Assembly: GCA_037481695.1 (NCBI GenBank)
Contig: JBBFLE010000002.1
Coordinates: 16,661 to 80,660 of the forward strand
Source of the DNA: a bacterium
GTDB taxonomy: Bacteria; Desulfobacterota; Desulfocorpusculales; Desulfocorpusculum
Direction: 5' to 3'
DNA: 64,000 nt
Shown here: one piece after another, positions 10,591-34,353 of the stretch
How positions within the stretch are numbered: position 1 is the first letter of the stretch
Layout of the letters: each line of letters begins with the position of its first letter
The notes under the pieces: generated by a model
What the model was told of the DNA's origin: nothing
The model's database searches: none
The model's input: only the letters and a program-made list of their open reading frames with translations
Position numbers and translations under genes: made by a program

Positions 10591-10617
10591 GGAAGGCCTC
10601 CCCCATGCCCTTTTTTT

Positions 10618-13533: not shown

Positions 13534-14517
13534 CTACTGCCCAGGCTGCCCCCTCAGGGCTTGCAGGTCTGCCTCCACCATCATCTTGACCAGCTCCTGG
13601 AACCCCACCTGGGGTTCCCAGCCCAGAATGCGCCTGGCTCTATCAGAGTCTCCCCTGAGTTCAAATATCTCGGCTGGTCTGTAAAGAGCCTCGTCCACAA
13701 CCACATGCTCTCTCCAATCCAGGTCCAGATAAGAAAAGCAAATCTGCACGAGTTCTCTCACGGAGTGGGTCTCGCCCGTTGCTATGACATAATCCGAGGG
13801 TTCTTCATGCTGTAGCATCAGCCACATGGCCTTGACATAGTCCCCGGCATAACCCCAGTCCCTGCGGGCATCCAGATTACCAAGCCGCAGCTCTTTGGCC
13901 AATCCCAGCTTTATACGGGCAGCAGTGCGGGTCACCTTTCTTGTCACAAACTCCAGTCCCCTCCTAGGTGATTCATGGTTGAAGAGAATGCCGCTTAAGG
14001 CAAAGAGCCCGTAAGCCTCCCGGTAGTTCCGAGTCAAGTGGAATCCAGCCACCTTGGATATACCGTATGGGGAACGGGGATTAAAGGGGGTCTTCTCGTT
14101 CTGAGGTGACTCGAGGGCGTTGCCGAACATCTCGCTGGAGCCTGCAAAGTAAAACCTGCAGCCCGGGGCCGCATCTTTGAGGGCTGCCAGCACGAAGTGG
14201 GTGCCGTTGATGTTCGTGTTTATGGTGGAAAACTCATCTTCAAAGGAATAGCTCACAAAGCTTTGTGCCGAAAGATGGTAACACTCGTCGGGCTGTATGC
14301 GCTCTATGACCTTGAAGATGCTGGCATAACTCTCCAGAGAACCAGCATGTATGTGAACCCTGTCCAAGAGGTGACGGATCCTCCAGAGCCTCTGCTCGGG
14401 ATCCTCTATGGCCACCCTCCTGACTATACCGTGTACCTCATAGCCTTGATCAAGGAGAAACTCCGCCAGATAGGAGCCGTCCTGTCCTGTGATGCCTGTT
14501 ATCAAAGCCTTTTTCAA
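13534..14517 (-). CDS. gmd: GDP-mannose 4,6-dehydratase
   Basis: 327 aa with short-chain dehydratase N-terminus (ALITGITGQDGSYLAEFLL), catalytic YGISK and typical Gmd C-terminal layout. Confidence 0.9.
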   Translation of the reverse strand: MKKALITGITGQDGSYLAEFLLDQGYEVHGIVRRVAIEDPEQRLWRIRHLLDRVHIHAGSLESYASIFKVIERIQPDECYHLSAQSFVSYSFEDEFSTINTNINGTHFVLAALKDAAPGCRFYFAGSSEMFGNALESPQNEKTPFNPRSPYGISKVAGFHLTRNYREAYGLFALSGILFNHESPRRGLEFVTRKVTRTAARIKLGLAKELRLGNLDARRDWGYAGDYVKAMWLMLQHEEPSDYVIATGETHSVRELVQICFSYLDLDWREHVVVDEALYRPAEIFELRGDSDRARRILGWEPQVGFQELVKMMVEADLQALRGQPGQ

Positions 14518-14621
14518 GGTTCAGCTCGCCGGGCCGGCCCTCCTTTGAGAATCCTGGGCACCCACACATGCCCCAAGCCCACCCGGCCGTGAGGCCTTGG
14601 GCCAACGGGATCTTGCCCAGA

Positions 14622-15911
14622 TCATTGTCTTTGTGCTTTGGCCTGCATTTCCTGGCGCAGCTTCCCAATGTAGCGCTGTCCAAAGACCACAATGGTGCCC
14701 ACCAAGATGGACAATACACCGGCCATAAGCACGTTGGTGCTGGTCTTGGGTTTGTATTTTCTCACTGGAGGCACAGCCCAGTCTATCACCTGGAAGGCCA
14801 CGTCCTCTTTGGATTCTTCTATACGGGCCAGCTCATACTGTTGGGTCAGAAGCTCCAGGACCTTCTCGTGGAAAAGCACGTCCCTTTTGAGCCTTCCGTA
14901 CATGAGGCCCAGCTCCGGGGCTCCGGCCAAGGAAAGCTTGCTCCCCCCTTCCTTGGAATGGTTGGCCTCCAGACGCTCCAGCTGTTTTCTGAGTTCGCTC
15001 AGCTGAGACTCCAAGAGCTGCACCTTGGGATTCAAAGCAGTGGCATAGGTTCTTACCACATCCAGCTCTACTTCCTTGGCCGCCACCATGCCCTTTAGCT
15101 CTGCAAGTCCCCTTATGGCAGCCTCGGCCTGCTCGTTCATGGCTACAAAACGCTTCTCCTGCTGGAAATCCTTGAATCTCTCCTCGGCCTCGGACAATTC
15201 CCTCTTGGTCTTGGAGACCTGGGCTTCCAAAAAGAGCCTTTTTTTCTTGGCCACACTCAAGGCATTGGCATTTATGAAGCTCTCCAGCTCCAAGATGTGG
15301 GCATTGGCTATCTCTGAGGCCAAAGTGGGATCCTTCCACTCCACTGTTATGTTCACAAGCCCTGTTCTTCTCTCCTCGTTTACCCTGGTGATCCCCCTTA
15401 GGGCTTTGACACCATCCTCCAGGCTGGGCTGCTTTGAGGGATCCTTCCACTGATTCCTGAGCATGTCCCATTGCTCCTCGAAGAAGATCCTCATCAGATC
15501 CAACCTGGAGATGACCTTTTCCTTCAAGGTTCGGCTCTCCAATATGGCCACCAGGGTCTGGGATGGAGTCGCCTTTCCTCCGGGCAAGGAAAGCCCCATA
15601 CCTCCCAGCATGGCAATGTAAGAAGAAAACCCCCCCTCTCTGGATTCCATGGGAATGAGAGAAGCCCTGGCCTGATATATCTTGGGAAACACGAAAAGAC
15701 TCAGAATCCCTGTGGAGATGGTGGCAGCCAGAAAAAGGCAAAAAAGAAACCTGCGTCGGCTCCAAAGCACCAGCCACAGTTCCAGGAGGTCCAGGCCTTC
15801 CTCCTCGGCCCAGGACGATTCCCCAGCTCTATAGGGGCATGGGGCTTGCTGAAGCCCTACCCCTGGAAAAGCTGCCCCCTTTTGTTCTGTCTGCAAATCC
15901 TCTTCCTTCAT
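14622..15911 (-). CDS. polysaccharide chain-length determinant (Wzz/Wzc N-terminal-like co-polymerase), no kinase domain
   Basis: N-terminal motif LDLLELWLVLWSRRRFLF plus a TM segment, long coiled-coil periplasmic region, C-terminal TM (LMAGVLSILVGTIVVFG). Track ORF starts with GTG at 15947; the first ATG is at 15911. Confidence 0.65.
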   Translation of the reverse strand: MKEEDLQTEQKGAAFPGVGLQQAPCPYRAGESSWAEEEGLDLLELWLVLWSRRRFLFCLFLAATISTGILSLFVFPKIYQARASLIPMESREGGFSSYIAMLGGMGLSLPGGKATPSQTLVAILESRTLKEKVISRLDLMRIFFEEQWDMLRNQWKDPSKQPSLEDGVKALRGITRVNEERRTGLVNITVEWKDPTLASEIANAHILELESFINANALSVAKKKRLFLEAQVSKTKRELSEAEERFKDFQQEKRFVAMNEQAEAAIRGLAELKGMVAAKEVELDVVRTYATALNPKVQLLESQLSELRKQLERLEANHSKEGGSKLSLAGAPELGLMYGRLKRDVLFHEKVLELLTQQYELARIEESKEDVAFQVIDWAVPPVRKYKPKTSTNVLMAGVLSILVGTIVVFGQRYIGKLRQEMQAKAQRQ

Positions 15912-16013
15912 GGACTGTATCCCAACCTGGGTAAAAAAATCCCCCACTTACGGGCTCACCCGCACCAGCTTCTTTCCAGAGCCCCAAGGGCACTTTCCCC
16001 TGGCCTTTGAGTC

Positions 16014-16505
16014 TCAGCGGGATCCGTGATGCGGAGGGGCACCATGGTGTGCCGGAGCCCCGTGATGTGCCGGGGTGCCGTGATGTATGGGGCTTCCACC
16101 AGGGCCAGCCCCGGCCCCCACAACAGTGCCCGCTGCAGTGGCTGCTGCTGCCGCCACTCCTCCCACGGCCAAGGCAGCACTGCCCGCCACAGTTGCTGCC
16201 ACAGCACCCACGGTCACCTCCGAGGAATTGAGAGCCGCTGCCACAGCCGCAGGCGTGCCCACCAGAGCCCCTCCCCCCAATTCCTGAGGTATGGGCACAG
16301 CCACCATGTTCTCGGGAATCGAGGCAGGCACCTGGCTCGAAAAAGTTATGCCTGGATGGGTCTTTATGGCTGCCAGTTGGCCGGCCGTAACATGGACCTG
16401 CTTTCCCGATGGAAGTGTCACAGGAACCGCTTCCGAAGCCCACAGAGGTGGAAGCAGGAAACTTGAGAGAACCAAGAGCCCTACCGCCCAAAACAGAGAT
16501 CTCAT
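16014..16505 (-). CDS. secreted Ala/Gly/Val-rich protein with C-terminal histidine-rich repeats
   Basis: ATG at 16505 is preceded by a strong Shine-Dalgarno (GCAAGGAGGTGGCTC-ATG on the coding strand) and followed by signal peptide MRSLFWAVGLLVLSSFLLPPLWA. C-terminus is HHGTPAHHGAPAHHGAPPHHG. The longer track ORF (to 16601) lacks an RBS. Confidence 0.5.
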   Translation of the reverse strand: MRSLFWAVGLLVLSSFLLPPLWASEAVPVTLPSGKQVHVTAGQLAAIKTHPGITFSSQVPASIPENMVAVPIPQELGGGALVGTPAAVAAALNSSEVTVGAVAATVAGSAALAVGGVAAAAATAAGTVVGAGAGPGGSPIHHGTPAHHGAPAHHGAPPHHGSR

Positions 16506-16601
16506 GAGCCACCTCCTTGCTGTTCTAACCCTGCCCTTGAAGGGCTTTGGGTTCAATGGGGTTTTTACCACCAAAACACGCCAAAATAAAGCCCAGGCCA
16601 T

Positions 16602-18689
16602 TTATTTTTTCATGTCCTCCAGGTGTTCTGCCATGTGGGTCGGAAGCAGATCTTCCAGAAACTCGTACAACATGTTGAAGCGAGCCACGCTCTGGCCCAC
16701 ATCCCTGGTCCAGGGGGAGAAGGCGTAGCTGTGTTTCACTGGTGTCTCTTCCCTGGTGAACATGGCCATGGGAATGGAGATGAAGATCCCCTTGTCCTGG
16801 TAACCCTTGTTGAAGGGATCGCTGAAGCCTGAGGTGTCCGTGTATGTGTACCAGAATCCAAAGGAAGCTCCGGTGTCCCAGTGGCGTGCAACCTCTAGCC
16901 TAGCCCCAGGATCACCTGCCAGGAAGCGCCCAACTCTCAGCTTGGCTGCCAAGCCCAGGTCTGGCTGGAGGTAGTTGAGCGATCCAAGCAGGGTGTAAGC
17001 ATGGAAATCCATCAGGCCCAGCTGGGATTCAGGATCTCTTTTGACGACCCAGTCCCCCATCACACCAACACTCCACCTTCCATCCCCAATTACATGGAGA
17101 AGTTCCCCGCTCAGCCCCGCGTACTGGGTCTCCAGATAGCCTGCGGTCATGCGGCCGAAGCTGCCCCCTCCCAGGTTCCAAACCTGATCCAATAAAAGGG
17201 AATTGAACCTGGGATCGCTTCTTTTCTTGTATAGCACCATATCCGACCGCACAGGGTGTTCACCCAAAGGCGCTATGGCGCTCTTTATGTTGTTGTAAAA
17301 GGGGTAATTGAACCAGGCATAGAAGTCAGAGCCCTCCCACAGGGAGGCTGCTCCCCAGGCATCCACCCCAGCCCTTGCTCGGAAGAAGCCCGAGGGATCA
17401 TCCAGCCAAGTCTCCAGGGCGGGCTTTACACCATAGTCCAAGATCTCTGGATTCAGGCCCATGCGCTCCAGGGTGTTGGAGCTTGAAGCCGAGGAGGGAA
17501 GTACCCTGTCATTGGGCCCGGCCTTTTTTATCTCCACCATGCGGCGGAACTCCTCTTTGCTGTATTTGCCGGCCAAAAACCCCATGAAGTCCATGGCCTG
17601 GAAATCAATCTTCACCGTGGGCACACTTCTTCTTAAAGCCACCACCTGTATCCTGGGCACATCCAGAGGTGCCAGGGCCACTGCGGTCCTCATAACCCTT
17701 CCCATGGCCTGGGCCTCTGAGAGGAACCTGGGGTTTTCATATTGGACCCTTACATGGTTTTCTCTCACCGAGACGGCCACGTGAAGGAAGCCCTGTTCCC
17801 GAAGCGCCTGATCCAGACGATCTTCCACCTCCCGGGGATCCCTCTGTCCCAAGGGTCTTCTGTCCACTGGCGAAGTATAGGGTTCGTCTGGCTTTGGAGG
17901 AAGGAGCCTCTTACCCAGGGTGAAGTCCGTGCTTACGCTTAGGCCGAAGGTGTCTCCTCTTTGGAAAGATGCCTCCACCGATATCCAGCTAACAGGCCTG
18001 AAACGCACGCCCAGGTTGATCCTCTTGGGGTCAAATCTCCAAAGGGCTGGACTATAAAAACCCACTTTAGGAAGGTCCGGCTGGTTCTTGACACCTCCGC
18101 TTAGCCTGTCTTTTGTATAATCCATGGGATTATACTCTGCCACCAAAGAAAGCCTATCCTCCCAGAGCTTGAGTTCCAGTCCGCCGAAGGGTCCCCTTAT
18201 GCGGCCAAAGCCGTAGCCCAGGGTGAAATCCAGGGGATAAATCTGACGGCTCATGACCAGATACTGGGTGGAGAAGGTCACGTTGTCGCCAAAAAGATCG
18301 TTGGCCCCCACTGCTATGGCAGGAAGCAGTCGGGATTCGGCCAGGATCTGGTACTTGGCGTCGAACTCCCTGATCTTGGTGTTCCCGTAACCTTCCCAGC
18401 CTGGATCTGTTATAGGCTGGTTTAGGACCTCTGTGACCCTCCCGTTGACCTCCAGGCCTGGGAGGAAACCAAGTCCAAAGTAGTAGGTCCTAAACGGATC
18501 CACGTTGGAGGCCCCGATGCGCATCCTACCGTCTTCCAGAATGCGGGCCGTGGGGATCTCCATCAGGCCGGTTATCCCGGTGTTGGAGGCAGACACAAAT
18601 GGTCTATCCTGGGCCTCCACAGCCCCCCCAGCTTCAAGCCCAAGAAACACAGTAAGCACAAATAATGCCAGCCATCTTTTCCCATGCAT
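16602..18689 (-). CDS. YjbH/GfcD-like outer-membrane polysaccharide-locus protein (putative)
   Basis: 695 aa with signal peptide (MHGKRWLALFVLTVFLGLEAGGAVEA), size and aromatic-rich beta-strand-like C-terminus consistent with the YjbH family. Assigned from memory. Confidence 0.5.
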   Translation of the reverse strand: MHGKRWLALFVLTVFLGLEAGGAVEAQDRPFVSASNTGITGLMEIPTARILEDGRMRIGASNVDPFRTYYFGLGFLPGLEVNGRVTEVLNQPITDPGWEGYGNTKIREFDAKYQILAESRLLPAIAVGANDLFGDNVTFSTQYLVMSRQIYPLDFTLGYGFGRIRGPFGGLELKLWEDRLSLVAEYNPMDYTKDRLSGGVKNQPDLPKVGFYSPALWRFDPKRINLGVRFRPVSWISVEASFQRGDTFGLSVSTDFTLGKRLLPPKPDEPYTSPVDRRPLGQRDPREVEDRLDQALREQGFLHVAVSVRENHVRVQYENPRFLSEAQAMGRVMRTAVALAPLDVPRIQVVALRRSVPTVKIDFQAMDFMGFLAGKYSKEEFRRMVEIKKAGPNDRVLPSSASSSNTLERMGLNPEILDYGVKPALETWLDDPSGFFRARAGVDAWGAASLWEGSDFYAWFNYPFYNNIKSAIAPLGEHPVRSDMVLYKKRSDPRFNSLLLDQVWNLGGGSFGRMTAGYLETQYAGLSGELLHVIGDGRWSVGVMGDWVVKRDPESQLGLMDFHAYTLLGSLNYLQPDLGLAAKLRVGRFLAGDPGARLEVARHWDTGASFGFWYTYTDTSGFSDPFNKGYQDKGIFISIPMAMFTREETPVKHSYAFSPWTRDVGQSVARFNMLYEFLEDLLPTHMAEHLEDMKK

Positions 18690-18720
18690 GGGGCGCCAGC
18701 CTCTTGAGGCCTCATTGCCT

Positions 18721-21423
18721 TCACAGGAGGGTCACCAGCACCCCTGCGGCCACACCTATCTGGTAAAGCACGGTGGTGACATCCTTCAGGCCTTTCAGGA
18801 AAGGAACCCTCTCCAGATCCTCAGGCACAACGATGGTGTCTCCTGGATCCAGGTACCTGGCCTGGAAGTCGTTCACCTGGAAGCGATAAGCCTCGGCGTT
18901 CCAGGTCACCAGGCTGGAGAGCCTGGAGGGGCCAACAGCCCTGCCGTCCACCTTGAGCACGTATATCTCGCTGGTGTCGGCCTGAGGAGTGGGGCCTCCG
19001 GCCAGCTGCAGGTAATGTGCCACGGTTTTTCCCGGCTCGTACAGGAAGGCCGAGGGGTTGTACACAGCCCCCATGACATTTACCACATCCGTACGCTCCG
19101 GCACATGGATCATGTCCCCATCCTCCATCTCCACGTCCGAAGGTGTTCCCTCCAAGGCCCTTGGGTGGGAGACCTGAAGCACCAACCTGCCCGTTGGCTT
19201 GACCTGCCTGAGTCGGGCCAGCAGTTCCATGCGCCTCCTGGCGGCCTGGGCCTCCACTTCGGCCTCTTCTTTACTGGTGGCCCCTGCGGCCTTGCTCAAA
19301 TTCATGGAGGCTACCTGTGCCTCCAGGCGGGAGAGGGTCTCCTCCAGACGTTTCTGTTGAAGGGCCTGAATGGATCTTCTGGCGAAAAATACACCCTTGA
19401 GATAGGCTTTGTCGGTGAAGCCTCCTGCTCTGTTCAAAAGGGAGCTCAGTTTCTCGCCCTTTTTCACCGCATAGGCACCCGGATGCATGACCTCTCCGGT
19501 GAGATGCACAATCCTGTAAAGCTGCCAGTCGGGCACCGTGCGCACGAACAGATAGTCGTTCTCCTCCAGGGGCAAATCCTTGTCCTTCTCCTGTTTCAAG
19601 GCTGCTGCCAGGTCCAGGGTGAGCCTCTCTGTCACAGGGCCTTTCTGGGTTATCTTTACCCTGGTTAGCTCCCCCACGGCCGAGGCCTCGGGTCTTAGTC
19701 CTCCGGCCATCTTGATCAGGTCTGAGACGGTCATCTTCTCCCTCATACGGTACTCGCCGCTTCGCCAGACCGCACCGGTGACCCGCACAGTAGGCCGAAT
19801 GTTGAATTCTTCTTTACTGAAAACATAAATGGTGTCCTGGGGATGCAAGAGGAGGTCCTGCTCAGGATCTCTTTGCAAGGCCTTTCCCAGATCAAAGGAG
19901 CGCAGCTCCTCGTGATAATCAGGGGGCACCAGTCGCCTCACCAGCCCAAAGTCGAATATGGCCTCTGGCATGAGGTCCTCAGGCCGCCCCAGGATGTCGC
20001 TCACTCTCATCCCCTCCCTCCAGGCGTATACCCCCGGCCTCATCACATGGCCTGCCAAGCGCACCTCGTTTATGATGGAAGGGTTTATGGCAAAGACCTG
20101 CACTATGTCTCCGTCCTGAAGCTGTATGTCCTTTTCCCCCACCAGATCAGCCAAGGCAGTGTCCAGAACCATCCTGGCCCTTCCCTGGTACACCCTTTCC
20201 ACCTGGACCCTGTGGACGTAGGCAGTAGCAGTGGGGCCGCCGGCCATGGCCAGGACCTCGCTCAGGCGCCTCTCCCCCTTGAGCTCGTAGATGGCCGGCT
20301 GCTTGACCGAACCCGCAACGGCCACCAGAGGCCCCACATAAGGGATGAAAACCGTGTCTCCGTCCTGCAGGAGCCTGTCCTGACTCTTGTCTCCCTTGAG
20401 CAGGAAGTCATACAGGTCCATCCTGGCCAGGGTCTGACCGTTTCTGAGGAGCCTCACATCCCTCATGCTCCCGGTCTTGGAAGGACCCTGGGCTGCAAAA
20501 AGAGCGTTCATGATGGTGCTCATGTTTGTAAGCTCGTAAGTGCCTGGGACCCTGGCATTGCCCACCACAAAGACCCTGATCCCCCTGAGTTGGCCTAGGC
20601 CCACGCTCAAAGAGTAGCCCGAGTAGTACTTCTGGATCTCCTTGTCCAGGTGAGCCTTGAGACTGCCGTACGGAACGCCTGCCACGGGTATATCCCCCAC
20701 GGTGGGCAGGTGAATCTTTCCTTCCCTGTCCACCTTGAGGATGTAATCCCCCTGGATCTTTCCCCAGACCCTTACCTGTATCTCGTCCCCAGGACCGATC
20801 CTGTAAGAGGGCTCGGGCACCCTTGCATCCACCGGAAGAGAGGGCGTCACCTGGGCCCTGGCAAACATGGCGTATCCGAACTGGGTGAGCTTTCGGTCTA
20901 TATGAGCTGGAAACTTGCCTTGCACATATTGTTCGAAGGCAGACGTCTCTTCTGTGGGAATAGAGGCCCATTTCTGAGCCGAGGCCGGAAGCTCCCGGCC
21001 TCCAAAGGTGTCAGGCTTTTCACTGAAGGAGCCCTCTGCTGCCCTGGACTCCGCGGTGGCAGCCTCGGGCGCCCCATCGGGTGGGGGACTCACACCAAGG
21101 GGAGCCTGGGGCCCCCTGAGGGGTTCCAGGCCAGAGCCTGCTCCAGGCGGAGCCTGCTTAACCCTCATCTCCCTGGCCTTCTCCAGAATCTCCGCAGGGA
21201 TCTCCTGCCCTGGAGCTTGAGCCTGGGGGCTACCGCTTGGGGCCGTGACCCCTAGGCCTTGGCTGCTTGGGACACCAGAGGGTAAGGCACGGCCTCCACC
21301 CGGACCTTGAAAGGGAATCTCCACGGCCTGAAAAGCCACGGAGCTTCCACCTAAGGCAAAGATGCTGAAAAACAAGATTTGAAAAAACCCAGACACCACT
21401 TTTGGCTTCCCCAAAAGCTTCAT
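18721..21423 (-). CDS. polysaccharide export protein (Wza-like, multiple SLBB domains)
   Basis: Signal peptide from the ATG at 21423 (MKLLGKPKVVSGFFQILFFSIFALGGSSVAFQA). Repeated SLBB-like units (IGPGDEIQVRVWG..., LQDGDTVFIPY, LQDGDIVQVF, EDGDMIHVP, LDPGDTIVVP). C-terminal hydrophobic helix. Confidence 0.75.
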   Translation of the reverse strand: MKLLGKPKVVSGFFQILFFSIFALGGSSVAFQAVEIPFQGPGGGRALPSGVPSSQGLGVTAPSGSPQAQAPGQEIPAEILEKAREMRVKQAPPGAGSGLEPLRGPQAPLGVSPPPDGAPEAATAESRAAEGSFSEKPDTFGGRELPASAQKWASIPTEETSAFEQYVQGKFPAHIDRKLTQFGYAMFARAQVTPSLPVDARVPEPSYRIGPGDEIQVRVWGKIQGDYILKVDREGKIHLPTVGDIPVAGVPYGSLKAHLDKEIQKYYSGYSLSVGLGQLRGIRVFVVGNARVPGTYELTNMSTIMNALFAAQGPSKTGSMRDVRLLRNGQTLARMDLYDFLLKGDKSQDRLLQDGDTVFIPYVGPLVAVAGSVKQPAIYELKGERRLSEVLAMAGGPTATAYVHRVQVERVYQGRARMVLDTALADLVGEKDIQLQDGDIVQVFAINPSIINEVRLAGHVMRPGVYAWREGMRVSDILGRPEDLMPEAIFDFGLVRRLVPPDYHEELRSFDLGKALQRDPEQDLLLHPQDTIYVFSKEEFNIRPTVRVTGAVWRSGEYRMREKMTVSDLIKMAGGLRPEASAVGELTRVKITQKGPVTERLTLDLAAALKQEKDKDLPLEENDYLFVRTVPDWQLYRIVHLTGEVMHPGAYAVKKGEKLSSLLNRAGGFTDKAYLKGVFFARRSIQALQQKRLEETLSRLEAQVASMNLSKAAGATSKEEAEVEAQAARRRMELLARLRQVKPTGRLVLQVSHPRALEGTPSDVEMEDGDMIHVPERTDVVNVMGAVYNPSAFLYEPGKTVAHYLQLAGGPTPQADTSEIYVLKVDGRAVGPSRLSSLVTWNAEAYRFQVNDFQARYLDPGDTIVVPEDLERVPFLKGLKDVTTVLYQIGVAAGVLVTLL

Positions 21424-21563
21424 GGAAGCACCCCTGATCCCTCTAAATTTGCAGGAACCCTCTCCAAAGGATCCCCCAATGCCAACTCCCCAAGCCGTGC
21501 CCCCCTTTTTCAACCATCACAGCCCACCAGGAGACCACTCCCCCCGGTCTTCTTGGCACTTTC

Positions 21564-22238
21564 TCAAGGGGCAGCAGATGCAGCTATCAAGGTGGCCTCC
21601 TGGTTGTCCTCCTGAACCGCGTAGACCAATACTCCTACAATCTCCAAATAAGGTGCTGAAGGAACAGGTGTGACCCCCGATGCCCAAAGATTGAGCGTGC
21701 CGTTTAGGGTCTTGTTGACCTTGACCACGCCCGAATTGTTGGCCAAGACATCATCAACCCAAAAACCACCCACTTGCCAAAGGGGCTCGAAACATCCTAT
21801 CCAGTTGCACCTGTCCCAGGTGGCATTGAACATGTAAGGCCCTGTTTGTCCTGCCCGATGCATCCTGGTTATGAAGGTGACAAAATAGGATTGGCCCAAG
21901 GTCCCAAGATAGGTACCTGTGGAATTGGTGATGGTAGCCGGAAGCTTTGGAACCCTGCTCAGGTTGACGGCTATCTTGAACTTGTCTGGATTTCTTGTGG
22001 TAGTGAGCTTGACCGTGCCCGTTATATTGGCCAGCTGTAAGGCAGCCCTCCCGTAAATATCCTGAGCCCATGAGGTACTTTCTGGGGTGTTTGCGGCCGC
22101 CCAACTGGCCCAATCAGCCACATTGTTGTATGAGACGTTGAAGGTTATGCTTTGTGCCAGGGCCTGTGTGGAGGCCAACAAAACCGTTCCCAGAACCATT
22201 GCCCAAGTCAATCTCTTTGCCCTCTTTTTCATCTCCAC
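21564..22238 (-). CDS. hypothetical secreted protein
   Basis: 224 aa with N-terminal signal peptide (MKKRAKRLTWAMVLGTVLLASTQALAQ), Asn/Thr/Trp-rich mature part. No recognised domain. Confidence 0.5.
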   Translation of the reverse strand: MEMKKRAKRLTWAMVLGTVLLASTQALAQSITFNVSYNNVADWASWAAANTPESTSWAQDIYGRAALQLANITGTVKLTTTRNPDKFKIAVNLSRVPKLPATITNSTGTYLGTLGQSYFVTFITRMHRAGQTGPYMFNATWDRCNWIGCFEPLWQVGGFWVDDVLANNSGVVKVNKTLNGTLNLWASGVTPVPSAPYLEIVGVLVYAVQEDNQEATLIAASAAP

Positions 22239-22328
22239 GCCTCCTTCCTTCGAGATTCCCTCCCTTGTACAAGGGAGCCAAAAGCCAGATCAGAAATCGG
22301 GCCTCAAGCCTTGGCCATGGGCCCTCTG

Positions 22329-23498
22329 TCACAGGGCTTTTTGAATCAAAGTAGCCACCTTCTCCTGCACATCAGGGCTAAGATAAGGGTGCATGGGAAG
22401 ACTCAGGATCCTTTGGGCAGTATCCTCGCTCACGGGAAAATCTCCCTCGTGGTAACCCATATGGGCAAAGGCGGGCTGCAGATGAAGGGGCTTGGGGTAG
22501 TAGACCATGGTGGGTATGCCCTCTTCCTTTAGCCTTCCCCTGAGCCTTTCTCTTTGCCCATGGTCCTGAGCCAGGATGCAGAACTGAGCCCAGGCGCTTT
22601 TGCATTGCTGGGGTATCCTGGGAACTCTTATTCCAGCACATCCTGCCAGAAGAGCCGAGTATCGCGCTGCCACCTCCTGGCGAAGCGCCAATTCCTCTTG
22701 GAATATCTCCAGCTTTGCAAGGAGCACAGCCGCCTGAATAGTGTCCAGCCTTCCGTTTAAGCCCACCCGTACATGCTCGTACTTGTCCCTGCCAGCCCCA
22801 TGAACCCTTATGGAGCGAAGCACAGATGCAATCTCATCATGTCTTGTGAAACACATGCCTCCATCCCCGTACGCCCCCAGAGGCTTGGCAGGAAAGAAAG
22901 ATGTGGCCCCGCAATCGGCCAGCCCTCCGGCCCTGCGGCCTCCCCTCTCACCACCTAAAGATTGTGCGGCATCCTCGATCACCCAAAGATCCCTGGATGT
23001 TGCCAGAGAGCAGATGGCATCGTACTCTGCGGGCAGGCCAAAAAGATCCACGGCTATGACACAGCGGGCCCTTGATATCTTGCCAACCATTTCCCTTGGA
23101 AGGGGATGGATACCGGAGTCCTTTCTTTCCAAGGCCTCCACGGCCCTGGCCAATTGCTCTGGAGCCAGGTTGAAGGTATTGGGATCTATGTCCACGAAGA
23201 TTGGCATGGCCCCTACCAGCATCACTGCTTCTGCAGTGGCTGCAAAGGTAAAGGGAGTGGTCAATACCCCGTCGCCTGGGCCCACACCCAGGGCCATGAG
23301 AAGCATCACCAGAGCATCGGTGCCTGAAGAGCAGGCCACCGCATGCTTGACTCCCACGAAGCAGGCCAACCTCTCCTCAAGCTCTGCCACCTCGGGCCCC
23401 ATCACGTATTGGCCGTGCTCCAGGACCCTCTGTATCCTCTGTAGGAGCTGGTCCTTGATACGTCTTTGCTGAGCAGCCAGGTCAACGAAGGGGATCAT
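22329..23498 (-). CDS. DegT/DnrJ/EryC1/StrS-family PLP-dependent sugar aminotransferase
   Basis: Typical N-terminus MIPFVDLAAQQRRIKDQL from the ATG at 23498 (preceded by a GGAGG-like site) and fold-type-I aminotransferase body. The longer track ORF (to 23768) would overlap the upstream caspase gene. Confidence 0.85.
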   Translation of the reverse strand: MIPFVDLAAQQRRIKDQLLQRIQRVLEHGQYVMGPEVAELEERLACFVGVKHAVACSSGTDALVMLLMALGVGPGDGVLTTPFTFAATAEAVMLVGAMPIFVDIDPNTFNLAPEQLARAVEALERKDSGIHPLPREMVGKISRARCVIAVDLFGLPAEYDAICSLATSRDLWVIEDAAQSLGGERGGRRAGGLADCGATSFFPAKPLGAYGDGGMCFTRHDEIASVLRSIRVHGAGRDKYEHVRVGLNGRLDTIQAAVLLAKLEIFQEELALRQEVAARYSALLAGCAGIRVPRIPQQCKSAWAQFCILAQDHGQRERLRGRLKEEGIPTMVYYPKPLHLQPAFAHMGYHEGDFPVSEDTAQRILSLPMHPYLSPDVQEKVATLIQKAL

Positions 23499-23539
23499 GG
23501 CCTGCTCTTTCCCACTGCCTACATGTCCCATCTCCCACC

Positions 23540-24361
23540 TCACTGGAAAGGCTCCAGCATTCTTTTGGTCCTTGAGGATTTGGGACCTTCCAATTGGGGC
23601 ACCTGGCTGAAACCATTGAACTTCAAAGAGGCTCGCACCCTTCTGAGAAGCTCGCCCCGGGGGATATCCCCACCTGTATCTCTTAGATGTTTGCAAAGAT
23701 AGTATGTGAAAGCTCCGTTGAAAGCACCGCCTATGAAGGCATCTGCCGAGGTTTGGTTCTCCCGGCATCCAGCAAAAAGCACATGCCCCATGGGATTTGC
23801 GCCTCTGAGAAGCCTTCTGACGGGCAGCTCCTCATCCACCCTGGCCTGTATGTCTGCAGGAGGCTCCAGAAACCTTGGGTACATGGCCATTTCCATGGGC
23901 AAAAGGCTCAGGGCCGCCATCTCCCTGGTGCCGGTCCCTGAGTGGCAGCAGTCCAGGATCACCTCCAGGACAGCTCCCTGGGGCAGCCTGGCAAAAATCC
24001 CTTTCAGGTCATCATCTGAGATGTACTTACCCTCCCAGTTCATGTCATGGGGACAGATCACTTCGTCCATATGGTCGCGAAGCTCGTCTCCGTCCCGGTC
24101 CCTGACCTGGGAGCCGTGGCCTGAGAAATGAAACAGAAGCCTGTCTGCTGGGCCAGCATCCTTCACAAGCCATTCCAGCCTCTCCAGGATGGCCTCCCGG
24201 GTGGCACGCTCATCCACCACAAGGCGTACCTGCTCGGCCTGGAAGCCAAAATACTTGAGGAGCACGTCCCTCATGTTGGTCACGTCATTGACGCACCCCT
24301 GCAGATCACACCCAGGCAAACTATACTTGTTAATTCCGACCAGGAGGGCTTTTGGGGCCAT
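23540..24361 (-). CDS. caspase-family (peptidase C14, metacaspase-like) protein
   Basis: 273 aa with ALLVGINKY...L.GCVNDV N-terminus, catalytic His region (HFSGHGSQ) and catalytic Cys region (EVILDCCHSGTG). Confidence 0.75.
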   Translation of the reverse strand: MAPKALLVGINKYSLPGCDLQGCVNDVTNMRDVLLKYFGFQAEQVRLVVDERATREAILERLEWLVKDAGPADRLLFHFSGHGSQVRDRDGDELRDHMDEVICPHDMNWEGKYISDDDLKGIFARLPQGAVLEVILDCCHSGTGTREMAALSLLPMEMAMYPRFLEPPADIQARVDEELPVRRLLRGANPMGHVLFAGCRENQTSADAFIGGAFNGAFTYYLCKHLRDTGGDIPRGELLRRVRASLKFNGFSQVPQLEGPKSSRTKRMLEPFQ

Positions 24362-24691
24362 TGTCTCCCCCTTTCACCCAGCTCCCTTCATTCCCTGCCG
24401 TACACGTGGGAAAGAGCCGAAAACTCCCGCACCACTTCCAGACGGTCCTGCTCCAAAAATCTCTCTATGGCTTTCCTGGCAACACACCTGGAGTAGCGAG
24501 CCCAGCAGTTCTCTTTTTCACAGAAACTGTGTTTGGCACCTTCTTCCCCCTTCATTCTGTGATGAGAACACAAAAAACAAGAACGCAAGAGCATACCCAC
24601 CTCCTAAAGTGCGTGGAAAGAAGGCCTCTTGGGCCCCCTGGAAAGGATCTTGCCGTGGAAGAGCACCATTTTCTGACCCAAGGTCTGCAGA

Positions 24692-25240
24692 TCACGGAGC
24701 CCTCTCGATCAAAGATTCGTGAAGATGCACCCTGGCTTGAAACCCTAGCACAGCCAGGAGGATCTCAACCCTTCCCTGATCGTCCAGATCCCGCTCGAAG
24801 ATCCCCAAAAGGTCCTTGAAAGGGCCTGAAACTATCCTGACCCTGTCTTTGGGGCGCAGACGCCTTCCCACCCTTACAAGCCCATGAGAGTCCATCTGGC
24901 TTCTGATGGTGCTGATCACCTCATCCGGCACCGATGTGGGTTCCCCCTGGGTGCCCAACACCCGCCTGACTCCCCTGGTCCAAACAACCTGCGGATACTC
25001 ATCGGGATAATGGAAACGGGCAAAAAGGTATGATGGGAAAAGAGGTCTGATGGCCTCCCTGGCCTTGAACCTCCTGAAACGCACCACCCGAATCTTTGGA
25101 AAAAACAACTCCAGACCTTTCTCGGCCAGGTGAACCAGGGCCCTTTCTTCTTCTTTGGGATTGGTTTGAACAACGAACCATCTGGGTGTGCATTCCCCCG
25201 AAGGAGTGATGCTGGCTCCTTCCATCACTGATCGACTCAT
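24692..25240 (-). CDS. NusG-family transcription antiterminator paralog (UpxY/LoaP/RfaH-like)
   Basis: 182 aa with NGN domain (WFVVQTNPKEE...PLFPSYLFARF) and KOW-like C-terminus (RVRIVSGPFKDLLGIF). First gene of the minus-strand polysaccharide locus. Confidence 0.75.
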   Translation of the reverse strand: MSRSVMEGASITPSGECTPRWFVVQTNPKEEERALVHLAEKGLELFFPKIRVVRFRRFKAREAIRPLFPSYLFARFHYPDEYPQVVWTRGVRRVLGTQGEPTSVPDEVISTIRSQMDSHGLVRVGRRLRPKDRVRIVSGPFKDLLGIFERDLDDQGRVEILLAVLGFQARVHLHESLIERAP

Positions 25241-25421
25241 AGGGCCTCCTTAGCGCCCCTTAAGGCCCAATTCCGTCGCATCGGGTTTTGGGACAAAATG
25301 GGTTTATGATATGTACACCGTCACCATTGACTTGTCAAGCTCATGAAACTCTACCCCGTTTGTACATAAATCGCCAGGGAACTCTTGTCCTGCTTGACTT
25401 CTCGTGCCTTTCTGTTTCACA

Positions 25422-26837
25422 ATGCGGATCCAAGAAGTGCTTTGGTTTTTTTCCTATGGGAAAATTTCTTCTGCAGATCGAGGAGCTCAGGTGTCTTCTC
25501 TCCAGAGACCGCAGACAGACCTTCCTCAGATATATACTGTAAGCAGGCTTACTCAGGAAATCAGGGATATTTTGGAAGGAAGGTTCCCTTCCATATGGGT
25601 GGAGGGGGAGATCTCGAATTTCCACCTACATTCTTCAGGCCACATGTATTTTATCTTAAAGGATGAACGTTCCCAGATCAGGGCCGTCATGTTCAGGGGC
25701 CAGGCCAAGGAGTTGAGTTTCAGGCCTGAAGACGGAATGCACGTACTTTGCCTTGGAAGAATAGGGGTTTATGAGGCCAGAGGGGAATACCAGCTTTACC
25801 TTGACTTCCTGGAGCCCAAAGGCGTTGGGGCCATGCTCCTGGCCGTGGAGCAGCTCAAGGCAAGGCTGGCCCTGGAGGGTTTGTTTGATCCTTCCCGCAA
25901 GAGACCCCTGCCTTTCTTGCCTAGATGCGTGGGAATAGTCACATCTCCCACCGGAGCAGTCATAAGGGACATGCTGCAGATTCTGGGCAGGCGTTTCCCC
26001 AATTTGCATGTGTTGGTGAGGCCTGCCAGAGTCCAGGGTGAAGGGGCGGCCCAGGAGATCTCCCAAGGCATAAGGGACCTGAATGAGTGGCCAGGAGTAG
26101 ACCTCATAGTGGTGGCCAGGGGAGGTGGCTCCCTGGAGGACCTTTGGGCCTTCAACCAGGAAGAGCTGGCCCGCACCATAGCCTCCTCCAGGATTCCCGT
26201 GGTGAGCGCAGTGGGACACGAGGTGGATTACACCATAGCCGATTTGGTGGCTGACCTCAGGGCTCCCACACCTTCGGCTGCAGCCGAGTTGATAGTTCCT
26301 GTCCATGCCCAACTTCACAGAAATCTGAGCGATTTGGCAGCACAGTTGTTCTCGGCCATGAGAAAACAAATAAAAAGGCTAAGGGAGGAGCTAAAGGGAT
26401 TGGTGAGCAGGCCGCCCCAATTGAGACGCCGTCTTGCCCAAGAAAGAATCGGCCTAGACGAGCTTCACCAGAGACTCCAGAATTCCATGGGGCAGATCCT
26501 GGAAAGAGCCAGACTGGAAAGGCAGCACCTGCTTCAAAGCCTTTCTCATCTGGATCCCAGGGCCAGCATACCTGCACTGAGAGCAGAGCTAGCGGCTATT
26601 GCCCAAAGACTAAGCTCCTCTTTCAAGTTCAGTCTCCAGGAAGGCCGGGCAGCTCTGGAAAGGGAAAAAGGCCTTCTTTATTCCTTAAGCCCTGCTCAGG
26701 TTCTGGCCAGAGGTTACAGCATCGTGAGGCTGCTGCCCCAGCAGAAGGTGGTGATGGATTCCTCTTCTTTGAAAGAGGGAGACCTGCTCAGAATCACCTT
26801 CCACAAAGGGGAAAGTACCTGCAGGGTGGAGAAATAA
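25422..26837 (+). CDS. xseA: exodeoxyribonuclease VII large subunit
   Basis: OB-fold N-terminus (IYTVSRLTQEIRDILEGRFPSIWVEGEISNFHLHSSGHMYFILKD), catalytic core, coiled-coil C-terminus. Start uncertain: GTG at 25404 or ATG at 25422. No xseB seen downstream. Confidence 0.85.
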   Translation: MRIQEVLWFFSYGKISSADRGAQVSSLQRPQTDLPQIYTVSRLTQEIRDILEGRFPSIWVEGEISNFHLHSSGHMYFILKDERSQIRAVMFRGQAKELSFRPEDGMHVLCLGRIGVYEARGEYQLYLDFLEPKGVGAMLLAVEQLKARLALEGLFDPSRKRPLPFLPRCVGIVTSPTGAVIRDMLQILGRRFPNLHVLVRPARVQGEGAAQEISQGIRDLNEWPGVDLIVVARGGGSLEDLWAFNQEELARTIASSRIPVVSAVGHEVDYTIADLVADLRAPTPSAAAELIVPVHAQLHRNLSDLAAQLFSAMRKQIKRLREELKGLVSRPPQLRRRLAQERIGLDELHQRLQNSMGQILERARLERQHLLQSLSHLDPRASIPALRAELAAIAQRLSSSFKFSLQEGRAALEREKGLLYSLSPAQVLARGYSIVRLLPQQKVVMDSSSLKEGDLLRITFHKGESTCRVEK

Positions 26838-31021: not shown

Positions 31022-33241
31022 TCACTGCTTCATGGCAGCAGCCAGTTTGCTCTCCAGTTGGGCCAACAACAGCTGTGGCTTTTTGGCCTTTTCCCTCTGG
31101 AAGGTCTCCTCGGCCAGGCCCAAAGTGATCTTCATGGGAACGTTTCTGACCTGCAATGTCTTTCCATCCAGCCCATCCAGAATCCTCTTTCTGACCACTT
31201 GCACACCGCTCTTGCCTGTGAAAGGAAGCAGCAAGGCCACTTTGTTTTCCTCCACACACCCAACCAGATCCACGTCCCTGAGCATGGGCAGAAGGGATTC
31301 CACCAGTGCATTTCTCACCTCGTGGGGTTTGATCATGCCCAGGGGCACTGGCCTGAGGGCCACAGCCCGTTTTACGCTCAGAAAAAGAATTGAGAAAACA
31401 TAAGGATATCTCTGCCCGCGCTTGATCTCTTCCCTCAGCAAGAAAAGGATGGTGTTCTTGTTGTAAGCTCCTTTGGGGGGCTTGTGGGGATCGGGCTCCC
31501 CTGCAGTCAGCCTGGCCCTCTGGGCCAGCGCTGTCTTAAGGGGGGCTGTATCTATTCCCTTGGCTTCCATGGCTTGTATGAGAGAATCCAGCACCTCGGC
31601 CTGCTCTTCCTGGTCTGAGTACGCAGCGCCCACAGCCTGCATGATCATCTGAGCATCCAGTCGGCCATGAGAAGCCTTGCCTCCGGCAAAGAGCTGGAAA
31701 AGCCATTGTCTCTTGAGTTCTTCCAGGTTCCTCAGGTTTCTCTCCCTGACTTCCTGCTCCACCCTCTGCACAACAGAGCTTTGACCGAGCCTGGCTTTGA
31801 GCCTGGATACCAACTCCTCCTGAATCTTGGAGACCACTTCCTGTAGTCTCCCGCCCCCCTCCGGCCCTTCCAGCTGTGCCTGCTCCAGTGCGAGCCCTCC
31901 ACTTACTTGTTCCACATACTCCACCAAGATCTTGACCAAGAGCTCCGGATCCTGTCGATTTCCCATGGATCGGATCTCAGCTGCCAAGGTTATAAGCTCT
32001 GCAGCTCCTTTGGGGTCCTTTCTCATCTCAGCCAGGAGGTCTGCGGCCGAAAGACCTATCTGTTCGGCTCCCTCTTCCAGGATCAGAGCCAGGTGCTCAC
32101 TTTGGAGCTCTCTTTCCAGTTCCCGAATGAGCTGTAGATAGTCGGCCAGAGGCATACCATCGGCCAGCAAAGCCTCCTTCAGCTTGGGCAACAGTCGCTT
32201 GAGTTCCCTCAGGTCAGGCATCATTCTTCTCAGTATCTGTGCAAGCCTCTTTACGGATATCTGTCCCTTTCTGTATTCCTCCCTCACCAGCTGTACCATG
32301 ACCTGATCTGTGAGATCGTCCATCTCTCGGCTGAGAGCATCCTGGTCAGCCAAGATCTCACCTTTCTTGGTTCGGACCTCCACTCCTTCCTGGACTTCCT
32401 CCCGCAACTTGAACACAGCTTCCACCAGGGCTCCCATGGCCTGGGTGCTCTTCAACTCCTCCTGGGGCTTCTCCAGTTCGGCTCTTAGCTTCCGGATACC
32501 TTGAATCAAGGCCTGGCCTCTTGCATCAGGCTGCTCGGGTAAGGCCGAGGATTCCGTTCCTGTACCCAGGAGCTTTCTGGTCACCGCAGATGGATCCTCC
32601 ACCAGTTGTGCCAAGCTCAGATCTTGAAAGAATCTCTCGAAAAAGCTCTCCTCCTCGGACAGCACCCTTTGCTGGGAAGCCTCCTTGGGAGACCCCTCCG
32701 CATCGCCCATGTCTATGATGATCTGGCTGAAGCCCGCCCCGCCCGTGGAACGCAGAAGCTCCTCACGATCTACCACCTCTTCGTCGGCGGTCATCTTCTT
32801 GAAAAACACATGGTTTATCCGGATATTCTGCACAGCCTGTCTGACGAGCCCCTGTTTCATCTGCTCCGCAGTGGGATAGATCTTGGAGTCCGCGAAAACC
32901 CTCGTGAAGGAAGCCAGTTCCTTCTGGCTCAGGCCGCGGTCAAATGACACAGATTGCACCCCGGCCTTTTTCATGTGGGAGATCAGCCGCTGAGCGCTCA
33001 CACGAGGATCCAACGCCTCCTCTTCCACATAGATCCTCTCCCTTTCCAATACAATGGTCAGAGGGGATACGAATCTGAGCCCTTCTTGCAAGGCTTCGGC
33101 CAGCAGTTGCAAGGTCTCTTTGGTGCTGGGATGATCTATGCTGTACATGCTAGCCCGGTTGAAAAGCAAGTTGAAGATCCTGCCCACACGATCCGCCACG
33201 TTGGGTGGAAGAGACCGGCCTGGTTGTGACTTATCGCTCAT
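31022..33241 (-). CDS. large hypothetical signalling protein with degenerate GGDEF-like C-terminal domain
   Basis: 739 aa. Long Glu/Leu-rich coiled-coil middle. C-terminus resembles a GGDEF fold with the signature replaced (FSILFLSV ... DLVGCVEENKVALLLPFT). Co-directional with the upstream Ser/Thr kinase. Confidence 0.6.
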   Translation of the reverse strand: MSDKSQPGRSLPPNVADRVGRIFNLLFNRASMYSIDHPSTKETLQLLAEALQEGLRFVSPLTIVLERERIYVEEEALDPRVSAQRLISHMKKAGVQSVSFDRGLSQKELASFTRVFADSKIYPTAEQMKQGLVRQAVQNIRINHVFFKKMTADEEVVDREELLRSTGGAGFSQIIIDMGDAEGSPKEASQQRVLSEEESFFERFFQDLSLAQLVEDPSAVTRKLLGTGTESSALPEQPDARGQALIQGIRKLRAELEKPQEELKSTQAMGALVEAVFKLREEVQEGVEVRTKKGEILADQDALSREMDDLTDQVMVQLVREEYRKGQISVKRLAQILRRMMPDLRELKRLLPKLKEALLADGMPLADYLQLIRELERELQSEHLALILEEGAEQIGLSAADLLAEMRKDPKGAAELITLAAEIRSMGNRQDPELLVKILVEYVEQVSGGLALEQAQLEGPEGGGRLQEVVSKIQEELVSRLKARLGQSSVVQRVEQEVRERNLRNLEELKRQWLFQLFAGGKASHGRLDAQMIMQAVGAAYSDQEEQAEVLDSLIQAMEAKGIDTAPLKTALAQRARLTAGEPDPHKPPKGAYNKNTILFLLREEIKRGQRYPYVFSILFLSVKRAVALRPVPLGMIKPHEVRNALVESLLPMLRDVDLVGCVEENKVALLLPFTGKSGVQVVRKRILDGLDGKTLQVRNVPMKITLGLAEETFQREKAKKPQLLLAQLESKLAAAMKQ

Positions 33242-33435
33242 GACTCAGCCTTCCCAACCCGCCTCTTTCTAGGAAATTCCATGTGGCGGGCTCTTCCGTG
33301 GGTGTGATCCGCCCATACAAGGCTCCTGGGATCAGACCGCTCTTTTGACCGGGAGAAGTGACCTCTAGCCCCATGCTCCTTCGTGACCTCTGGGGGAAGG
33401 ATAAGAAATCTCCCCCTGCTCGCCCATCCAACCTC

Positions 33436-34353
33436 TCACTTCTGTTGGGCCCTCTGCTCCATGGCATGTAAGCGCTTGGAGCTGTACTCCTTTAATGCAT
33501 TGGCAAACTCTTTGCAGTCGCAGAAGCGATCATCGGGCCTCAGGGATATGGCCTTTAGAATTATCGCTTCCAGTTCCTTGTCCACCCTGGGATGGCACTG
33601 GGAGGGCATCTTGCTGAACATGCCCAGGGGCTCGCTTACCTTTCTCTGGCGCAGCTTTCCCACAGGCTCAGGATAAATGGGCAGAGTTCCCACTGCCATC
33701 TCAAAAAGTATTACCCCCACGGCATATATGTCCGCCCGGCCGTCTACCTCTTGGCTCATGGCCTGCTCAGGAGCCATGTAAAGAGGAGTGCCCAGGGCAC
33801 GGCCCTGGTCCAGATCTTCACCCCGAAGCTCTTTGGCTATACCAAAGTCTGAAAGCAGAACCCGGCTGGTCTTGGCCTCTAGGAGAATGTTGGCGGGTTT
33901 TATGTCACGATGAATCACTTCCTCTTCATGGGCATAGGAAAGAGCATCTAACACCTGCAAGAGGATCCTGATGCCCTCTCCCATAGGAATGAGGCGCTTG
34001 GAGGGAACCGGGTGTTTGCGCGCCCGCTCCAGGATCTGGGAGAGGGCCATGCCCTTGACCAGCTGCATCACCATGAAGTAGAGCTCTTCGGTCTCTCCCA
34101 CCTCGTAGATGGGGATGATGTGAGGATGGGTCAAGATGGCGGCTGTCTCAGCCTCCTGTCTGAACCTTGCCCCGGCCACAGGGTCTACTACCAGGGCCTT
34201 GGGCAACACCTTCACGGCTACAGGTCGCTTGAGGGTGGTCTGATAGCCCAGGCAAACTATGCCCATGCTGCCCCTGCCTAGTTCCTTTATGATCCTGCAG
34301 GTGCCCAAAGTTGAGCCCACCAAATGATCCACCGAGACGCGAGCCAAGGCCAT
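33436..34353 (-). CDS. Hanks-type serine/threonine protein kinase (kinase domain only)
   Basis: 305 aa with GRGSMGIV glycine loop, VAVK lysine, HRDIKPANILL catalytic loop, DFG and APE motifs. Confidence 0.9.
   Translation of the reverse strand: MALARVSVDHLVGSTLGTCRIIKELGRGSMGIVCLGYQTTLKRPVAVKVLPKALVVDPVAGARFRQEAETAAILTHPHIIPIYEVGETEELYFMVMQLVKGMALSQILERARKHPVPSKRLIPMGEGIRILLQVLDALSYAHEEEVIHRDIKPANILLEAKTSRVLLSDFGIAKELRGEDLDQGRALGTPLYMAPEQAMSQEVDGRADIYAVGVILFEMAVGTLPIYPEPVGKLRQRKVSEPLGMFSKMPSQCHPRVDKELEAIILKAISLRPDDRFCDCKEFANALKEYSSKRLHAMEQRAQQK

Follow-up and report, generated by a model that had tools for sequence, protein, structure and literature searches.

Background

Metacaspases are common in bacteria, and to our knowledge almost none of them has a known role. 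A survey of metacaspase operons published in 2012 did not describe polysaccharide operons as a class (PMC3501461), and the Xanthomonas-type polysaccharide deacetylase-metacaspase-TPR proteins are multidomain fusions of about 100 kDa, encoded next to trmE, with an intact catalytic dyad (PMC3501461). NusG paralogs within or next to polysaccharide operons are established, in the form of UpxY and in the exopolysaccharide operons of Shewanella, and in Bacteroides fragilis UpxY and UpxZ head the capsular polysaccharide operons (PMC7819879). Here we analyze a stretch of 64,000 nucleotides (nt), called the window below, from a bacterium of the genus Desulfocorpusculum (Desulfobacterota; GenBank assembly GCA_037481695.1, contig JBBFLE010000002.1, positions 16,661 to 80,660 of the forward strand), in which an envelope-polysaccharide operon starts with a NusG paralog and has a metacaspase gene in third place.

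Like the UpxY/UpxZ operons, this locus has its NusG paralog first in the operon that it presumably serves, with a small non-enzymatic gene directly after it. It differs from them in its lineage, in the score of the paralog against the UpxY model (72.5 bits, below the cutoff of 100) and in that in some relatives the paralog is internal, after Wzc/CpsB. The small gene, which we call small68, resembles UpxZ in position only; it has no detectable similarity to any described family (UpxZ itself being outside the comparison). With RfaH, the paralog shares the type of target, a long envelope-polysaccharide operon, and RfaH is also its best-scoring NCBIfam model, with 156 of 159 positions aligned. Unlike the RfaH of Enterobacteria, however, it falls below the equivalog cutoff and is encoded inside the operon instead of as a lone cistron.

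As for the metacaspase, fold, dyad motifs, acidic S1 pocket and the acidic cluster DxDGDE...D.xDE / DDD are those of type I metacaspases (Yca1, 4F6O; Candida glabrata MCA1, 7QP0; Trypanosoma brucei MCA2, 4AF8) and of GSU0716 (3BIJ). It differs in that it has no prodomain, and its linker between the p20 and p10 regions is short and family-specific (PRFL-PP-DI); to the bacterial standalone enzyme GSU0716 it is only distantly related (E=8e-13). A link between carbohydrate modification and metacaspases is shared with the Xanthomonas-type fusions, but here the link is an operon and the enzyme has a single domain. Finally, like the caspase-like defence effectors (gasdermin-activating proteases, TIR-caspase, CHAT), it is a Cys-His protease of clan CD found among conflict and stress genes, whereas a partner gene for gasdermin, TIR, CRISPR or STAND is neither present nearby nor recurrent in 43 loci of the family, the protein has no sensor domain, and its conservation greatly exceeds that of typical defence genes.

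A metacaspase gene in a polysaccharide operon

The minus strand of the window carries a run of same-strand genes that makes up an operon of about 14 kb for envelope-polysaccharide export and sugar-nucleotide synthesis. Since xseA, on the plus strand from 25404, diverges from it, the gene of the NusG paralog (25240-24692, 182 amino acids (aa), an NGN domain and a degenerate KOW domain) is the first of this unit. It is followed on the same strand by small68 (24594-24388, 68 aa, Cys/His-rich, a conserved open reading frame (ORF) with a ribosome-binding site), the metacaspase gene (24361-23540, 273 aa, Pfam Peptidase_C14) and the gene of a DegT/PseC-like sugar aminotransferase (23498-22329, Pfam DegT_DnrJ_EryC1 at 4e-107), for which PseC and LegC are the best-scoring NCBIfam models, both below cutoff. 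An earlier note on this sequence had recognized the NusG-family paralog and the C14 caspase-family protein at these positions, and Pfam bears out both (8.4e-19 and 1.5e-33, respectively). It had also placed the caspase-like gene directly between the paralog and the aminotransferase: the aminotransferase gene does adjoin it, but the 330-nt interval on the NusG side holds small68, which the note had overlooked.

From the NusG paralog onward, the intergenic gaps are 97, 26, 41, 90, 50, 31 ... 104 nt, with a span of 0 to 104 nt across the rest of the operon. The metacaspase gene is thus preceded by 26 nt, up to small68, and followed by 41 nt, between its stop at 23540 and the ATG of DegT at 23498, the latter spacing being the one given in the earlier note. 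A Shine-Dalgarno sequence precedes each of the first three genes. Scans found promoter- and terminator-like sites at a frequency no higher than in shuffled sequence, and none of them flanking the metacaspase gene or between the first genes; an independent promoter and terminator on either side, which would have spoken against its membership in the operon, were therefore not seen in these scans.

Upstream of the NusG paralog, a putative promoter of the sigma-70 type is present on the minus strand (25310..25338). It consists of TTGACA at 25338-25333, a 17-nt spacer and a weak -10 element, TACATA, at 25315-25310; the leader that it leaves would be only some 60 nt long. The window shares TTGACA and the GGTGTACATAT block with the two closest reference genomes (L001 and L002; loci and genomes used for comparison carry L numbers), where both are conserved. 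TTGACA is likely to be the -35 element, although the promoter as a whole stays putative and is not called by a strict consensus scan.

The order NusG-small68-metacaspase-DegT is the same in L001, L002, L049 and L050, at a dS (synonymous divergence) of about 1, and in this exact form it was found only in these closest relatives, the first two being Desulfarculaceae genomes and the other two metagenome contigs. Taken together, gaps, scans and conserved order indicate that the first three genes are most likely transcribed together with the operon, and that, as far as sequence can tell, a caspase-like protease is a member of it, as had been proposed. We hold the identity of the metacaspase and the anatomy of the operon with high confidence.

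Properties of the metacaspase

The 273-aa ORF matches Pfam Peptidase_C14 (PF00656) at E=1.5e-33 over profile positions 3 to 225 of 233. Solved metacaspases in the PDB (Yca1, CgMCA1, TbMCA2, AtMC4) match at E values of 1e-28 to 1e-33. Judged by eye from the alignment, identity to the fungal enzymes in the p20 region is roughly 50%. An AlphaFold2 (AF2) model (pTM 0.71, core pLDDT 85 to 95, loops poor) was compared with known structures by Foldseek: the first 29 matches are all metacaspases, ahead of caspases and MALT1, and the top ones, AtMC4, AtMC9, CgMCA1, TbMCA2, Yca1 and GSU0716, all have a probability of 1.0. As modelled, the protein has the caspase-hemoglobinase fold with its p20-like and p10-like regions.

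The note's claim of an intact His/Cys dyad holds well. His82 (in SGHG) and Cys139 (in DCCHSG) are invariant in sets of 33 and of 35 homologues, and their motifs align with the catalytic motifs of the solved metacaspases. Among the 33 homologues, the S1-pocket residues C23, D26 and D137 are invariant and S80 nearly so; they fall in the aligned GC.ND, SGHG and D.CHSG motifs of the solved enzymes, and their counterparts in TbMCA2, which give it its Arg/Lys specificity, we take to be C92, D95, S156 and D211. D207 and the QTSADA motif are invariant or nearly so in the same set, as is an acidic cluster (D88, D92, E93, D96, D99, E100, D106, D116, D117) that matches the DLDGDE-EDGMDDVI and DD motifs of CgMCA1, Yca1 and TbMCA2. 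In these alignments, the conserved residues fall within the P1 Arg/Lys-binding and Ca2+-binding motifs of characterized metacaspases, and the protein has the full set of residues that Ca2+-dependent cleavage after Arg or Lys requires, specificity and metal dependence themselves being predictions. It is a genuine metacaspase, and probably an active one.

Its dN/dS (ratio of non-synonymous to synonymous divergence) against three relatives is 0.08 to 0.10, the same as for Wza, YjbH and Wzz, and this purifying selection shows that the gene is functional. Both its GC content and its GC content at third codon positions (GC3) are typical of the window; on this native composition and the conserved synteny, we rejected a recent horizontal insertion of the gene in this genome. 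A 94% DNA-identical relative (L049:7230-8060, FWPU01000305.1) has a 1-nt insertion after about codon 67 that shifts the metacaspase frame. Either the read is wrong at this point or the gene is a pseudogene there; a real frameshift would make the enzyme dispensable.

The catalytic domain begins at residue 4, where profile position 3 is aligned, so that the protein starts with the first strand of the caspase fold. The N-terminal prodomain (Pro/Gln-rich or zinc-finger) of type I metacaspases in the strict sense is absent, the family measuring 269 to 285 aa throughout, and there is no signal peptide, lipobox or transmembrane segment either. The enzyme is for this reason predicted to be cytoplasmic and would be unable to process exported products. 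The earlier note had suggested that the protease could process a secreted product of the locus, and a family-less secreted protein of 224 aa (22238-21564, minus strand), whose signal peptide is clear and which neither Pfam nor NCBIfam matches, is indeed encoded two genes downstream. However, this protein is kept only in the closest Desulfarculaceae relatives (72 to 76% identity) and is not found in other metacaspase loci, and no constant neighbour gene offers itself as a substrate. We rejected a secreted processing protease on the absence of a signal peptide, and maturation of a secreted or surface product receives next to no credence from us.

Genomic contexts of the metacaspase family

About 2,900 members of the family can be detected, many of them single-domain proteins of about 270 aa that are 63 to 70% identical across Desulfobacterota, Nitrospirota and others. 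In all nine independent Pfam-annotated contexts of orthologues 65 to 69% identical to ours, polysaccharide genes are present within 10 kb and on the same strand. The possibility raised beforehand that homologues are never found in polysaccharide loci is therefore set aside, since they occur there repeatedly. We found no paper that links metacaspases to polysaccharide gene clusters, and the recurrence of the family in such loci appears to be unreported in the searchable literature.

The loci themselves are of several kinds. One of them reads Wza-Wzc-CpsB-NusG-small68-three epimerases-metacaspase-212 aa-DegT-sulfotransferase (L037). Others run CpsB...metacaspase-GT2-NeuB-...-DegT (L039), GT4-MNT/HepT-metacaspase (L042), Wzz, DegT-metacaspase...PglD, NeuB (L044) or GT2s-metacaspase...Wza-Wzc-CpsB-Wzy (L045). 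In L043, epimerases, GT1 and the metacaspase are followed by a string of HicAB, PIN and ParE; in L129 a toxin-antitoxin array precedes the metacaspase, and Bac_transf follows it; a further locus has the gene in an ABC2/Wzt transporter context. L131, with Asn synthase, a hexapeptide transferase, sulfate-activation genes and a PEP-CTERM protein, is less canonical.

Such contexts bear on the possibility that the protein is a general cytoplasmic metacaspase for housekeeping or proteostasis, like yeast Yca1, whose polysaccharide address is an accident of gene order and horizontal transfer. Its very high conservation (p20 about 50% identical to fungal metacaspase-1), its single domain without a partner, its native composition and the heterogeneous contexts in reference-genome loci would all suit such an enzyme. 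But nine out of nine annotated contexts in different lineages are hard to obtain by accident, the family is patchy and not universal, and the possible frameshift in the 94%-identical relative argues against an essential role. We consider a housekeeping function a lesser possibility.

Within 3 kb of the metacaspase in 43 dereplicated loci, the families met most often are SDR sugar epimerases/dehydratases (eight loci), DegT (seven loci and the window), AAA_14-DUF4143 ATPases (five) and GT2 glycosyltransferases (four), and all-against-all clustering over the same distance and loci revealed no constant partner gene. Another conceivable role involves DegT; clan CD has transamidase precedents. An enzyme like GPI8 or PorU would form an acyl-enzyme after Arg or Lys and pass the peptide to the amino sugar made by DegT, yielding a polysaccharide precursor decorated with a peptide or an amino acid. 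The aminotransferase gene is among the commonest neighbours, adjoins the metacaspase in the window and in L044, and is one gene away in L037; yet most loci lack DegT, the neighbourhood encodes no peptide that could serve as donor, and all features of the protein match ordinary hydrolytic metacaspases. A transamidase is, in our opinion, very unlikely.

The place of the gene within these operons also varies. It comes after small68 in the window, after three epimerases in L037, L056 and L057, before GT2-NeuB in L039 and before Bac_transf in L129. Toxin-antitoxin genes and other cargo very often lie next to it: HicAB, PIN/Phd, ParDE, HEPN/MNT, PemK, AAA_14-DUF4143 and the four-helix-bundle 23S_rRNA_IVP. 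In L046 and L048, which belong to the same NusG clade and have no metacaspase, the slot after the third epimerase is taken by HEPN/MNT pairs or by ParE. The 5' parts of these operons thus evidently accept same-strand accessory genes. Because its slot is variable, its neighbours are cargo and it has no constant partner, we interpret the metacaspase as accessory cargo and not as a step of synthesis or export, a reading that the comparison of loci supports and that we hold to be somewhat more probable than its contrary.

One more clade is relevant to this. Betaproteobacterial relatives 53 to 54% identical to our protein (L023, L024, L025 and L027, at about 10000-13000) are encoded directly upstream of a same-strand gene of about 665 aa, whose copy in L025, the one examined, has phage tail sheath domains. 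This suggests a contractile-injection-system and not a polysaccharide context, and we counted this 53%-identical clade, with its phage-tail-sheath-like neighbour, as another conflict or stress context.

A rival to the cargo reading would be a dedicated regulatory protease, which cleaves a cytoplasmic component of the polysaccharide machinery or of its control (the domain of a Wzc/Wzz-type co-polymerase, a glycosyltransferase, the NusG paralog or small68), and so tunes or ends polymer production. Several observations fit: the metacaspase is most likely a co-transcribed member of the operon, recurs on the same strand inside polysaccharide loci and matches the core genes of the operon in conservation; the genes met most often beside it encode sugar-modifying enzymes; and polysaccharide deacetylase-metacaspase fusions exist among the Xanthomonas-type proteins (PMC3501461). 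However, the locus types differ (Wzc/CpsB, NeuB nonulosonic-acid, ABC/Wzt, YjbH) and no neighbour is constant, so that a substrate common to all of them is not in evidence; NusG-led relatives of the locus do without a metacaspase; and the sister clade adjoins the sheath-like gene. We therefore doubt that the protease is dedicated to the pathway, without regarding the idea as negligible.

Possible role of the metacaspase

Our favoured reading is that of a co-transcribed accessory metacaspase, latent until triggered by Ca2+ or stress, and not a biosynthetic enzyme; judging from the sequences compared, we give it a probability of about one half. The order of events could be as follows. The NusG paralog, RfaH/UpxY-like and a member of neither family, would ride the elongating RNA polymerase and sustain transcription through the long operon, as expected from its family, with small68 accompanying it as a conserved, probably metal-binding protein. 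The metacaspase would be made, in latent form, alongside the machinery for the envelope polymer. More cytosolic Ca2+, or another signal of envelope damage or stress, would switch it on, and the activated enzyme would cleave cytoplasmic proteins, leading to shutdown or cell death. For trigger and targets, family biochemistry and the conflict and stress genes that keep the metacaspase company are our guides, and this part of the scheme is tentative.

A number of observations weigh against this favoured reading. For the Ca2+ trigger, we extrapolate from the metacaspases of eukaryotes and trypanosomes. Cargo of the conflict type is seldom as conserved between phyla as this protein, with its identity of about 65%, which fits a housekeeping enzyme with a conserved substrate as well. 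The match to the PADLOC 'caspase' model is only partial (1.2e-23, positions 5 to 158 of 453), and the sensors and partners that typify known defence systems based on caspases are not encoded nearby. Plasmid and phage collections yielded only metacaspase relatives of 41% identity or less, and no close orthologue, which gives no sign that known mobile elements carry the gene. The association with polysaccharide genes is not universal either: the counts cover loci of the family alone and are no formal enrichment, a phmmer panel detected such genes in no more than about 10 of the 34 loci from reference genomes (a lower bound, given the low sensitivity of the panel), and a Pfam census of the three genes on each side of the metacaspase is heterogeneous. 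In view of the panel result and of these mixed nearest neighbours, we call the link with polysaccharide loci recurrent, not obligatory.

Whatever its function, no other bacterial clade resembles the solved metacaspases of fungi and protists as closely as this single-domain one, and a reproducible address in polysaccharide loci rich in toxin-antitoxin genes provides a concrete place in which a metacaspase role can be tested.

The NusG paralog and small68

A NusG paralog at the head of a polysaccharide operon, as the earlier note had it, is a known arrangement of the UpxY type (PMC7819879), and the window has it as first gene. The 182-aa protein matches the Pfam NusG (NGN) domain at E=8.4e-19, and KOW weakly and partially (E=0.004). 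It aligns end to end with the NCBIfam models of RfaH (TIGR01955), UpxY (NF033644), LoaP (NF033641) and housekeeping NusG, with 94.2 bits against a cutoff of 144.5 for RfaH, 54.1 against 125 for LoaP and 54.5 against 135.7 for NusG; with UpxY, cited above, also below its cutoff, it is a specialized paralog outside the named families. With its NGN domain, its distance from housekeeping NusG and its gene beside a long accessory operon, it fits the general description of such paralogs, and antitermination activity is predicted for it. Its dN/dS is 0.07 to 0.10. Homologues of 60 to 65% identity occur in polysaccharide loci, after Wzc kinases and before epimerases (in L037, L046 and L048 the paralog follows Wzc/CpsB genes), and one homologue precedes pyr genes.

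The earlier note had also called for an ops-like or other recruitment element in the 5' leader. None was found. Unlike in the ops/JUMPstart system of RfaH, the ops sequence (GGCGGTAGnnTG) has no match with up to two mismatches in the leader (25241-25480) or at 24362-24691, and across the whole window such matches number 33, against 50 expected. An Rfam scan of 21400-25700 at E<=1 returned no family; the leader of about 90 nt and the 97-nt spacer between NusG and small68 fold no better than shuffled sequence (z of +0.6 and +0.9); and upstream of 22 dereplicated genes of the paralog, no shared 8- to 10-mer exceeds the shuffles. For the study of NusG proteins, the locus adds another lineage with a specialized paralog built into a polysaccharide operon and no ops element found.

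The gene of small68, the newest item of the locus, has an AGGAGG Shine-Dalgarno sequence 5 nt before its ATG. The protein is 79 to 88% identical in relatives, with a dN/dS of 0.044, and begins with MLLRSC. Six residues, C6, C9, H12, C25, C30 and C37, are invariant in 30 relatives and form the pattern C-x2-C-x2-H ... C-x4-C-x6-C; the protein is probably metal-binding. No match was found in Pfam, NCBIfam or PADLOC, and 79 were found at E<=0.001 among the 50%-identity cluster representatives of 1.8 billion proteins. An AF2 model from a four-sequence alignment was too poor for a fold search (pLDDT 66, pTM 0.45).

Among metagenome loci with enough upstream sequence, 32 of 42 have a NusG paralog upstream of small68, on the same strand and 39 to 2,800 nt away, and in many loci a 23S_rRNA_IVP or GIY-YIG gene is inserted between the two. 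Of 34 loci, 21 have polysaccharide genes downstream of small68, but only 4 have the metacaspase there. A single metagenome contig (Ga0315282_10001313, loci L086 and L099) has two small68 paralogs about 12.8 kb apart, downstream of one NusG paralog; loci that we scored as lacking NusG upstream may therefore have it further away. small68 is a conserved companion of this clade of NusG paralogs, and may be a new regulatory partner of the paralog.

The boldest form of the favoured reading would join both halves of the locus: polysaccharide operons of Desulfobacterota and Nitrospirota would carry a Ca2+-gated metacaspase as a switch for envelope breach or phage attack, under a NusG paralog set by small68 as a functional analogue of UpxY/UpxZ, so that damage leads to cell shutdown. 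We regard this as speculation, and improbable as a whole. If true, it would give a defined bacterial role to the metacaspase clade nearest the solved eukaryotic metacaspases. The general picture of how polysaccharide operons are controlled is unchanged by either point, metacaspase or NusG/small68.

Rest of the operon and other genes of the window

Beyond the aminotransferase gene, the remaining operon genes occupy 22238-11709 on the minus strand. The secreted 224-aa protein is followed, as identified by Pfam matches, by a Wza/SLBB exporter of 930 aa, YjbH, a Wzz-type co-polymerase, GDP-mannose 4,6-dehydratase (GMD) and, as the last gene, ending at 11709, an enzyme of the UDP-glucose/GDP-mannose dehydrogenase family (UGDH-type). 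Considered over 11100-25240, the operon holds export genes (Wza/SLBB, YjbH, Wzz) and sugar-nucleotide genes (DegT, GMD, UGDH) and no glycosyltransferase, flippase or polymerase; these must therefore be encoded elsewhere.

Two minus-strand ORFs of the same region, of 195 aa (16014-16601) and 186 aa (11119-11679), have a GC content at second codon positions that exceeds GC3, unlike all their neighbours, and no family matches. Either they are perhaps no genes at all, or another frame may be the true one. On the same strand, 1.2 kb past the operon, lies the gene of a LonC-like protease (7499-9958; AAA_32, LonB lid, Lon_C) with a weak match to PADLOC mads_8 (2.6e-06).

Elsewhere in the window, a Ser/Thr protein kinase adjoins a 739-aa protein that has no Pfam match (31022-34353, minus strand), and a plus-strand gene (38886-41261) encodes a PAS-HisKA-HATPase histidine kinase fused to a C-terminal GNAT acetyltransferase.

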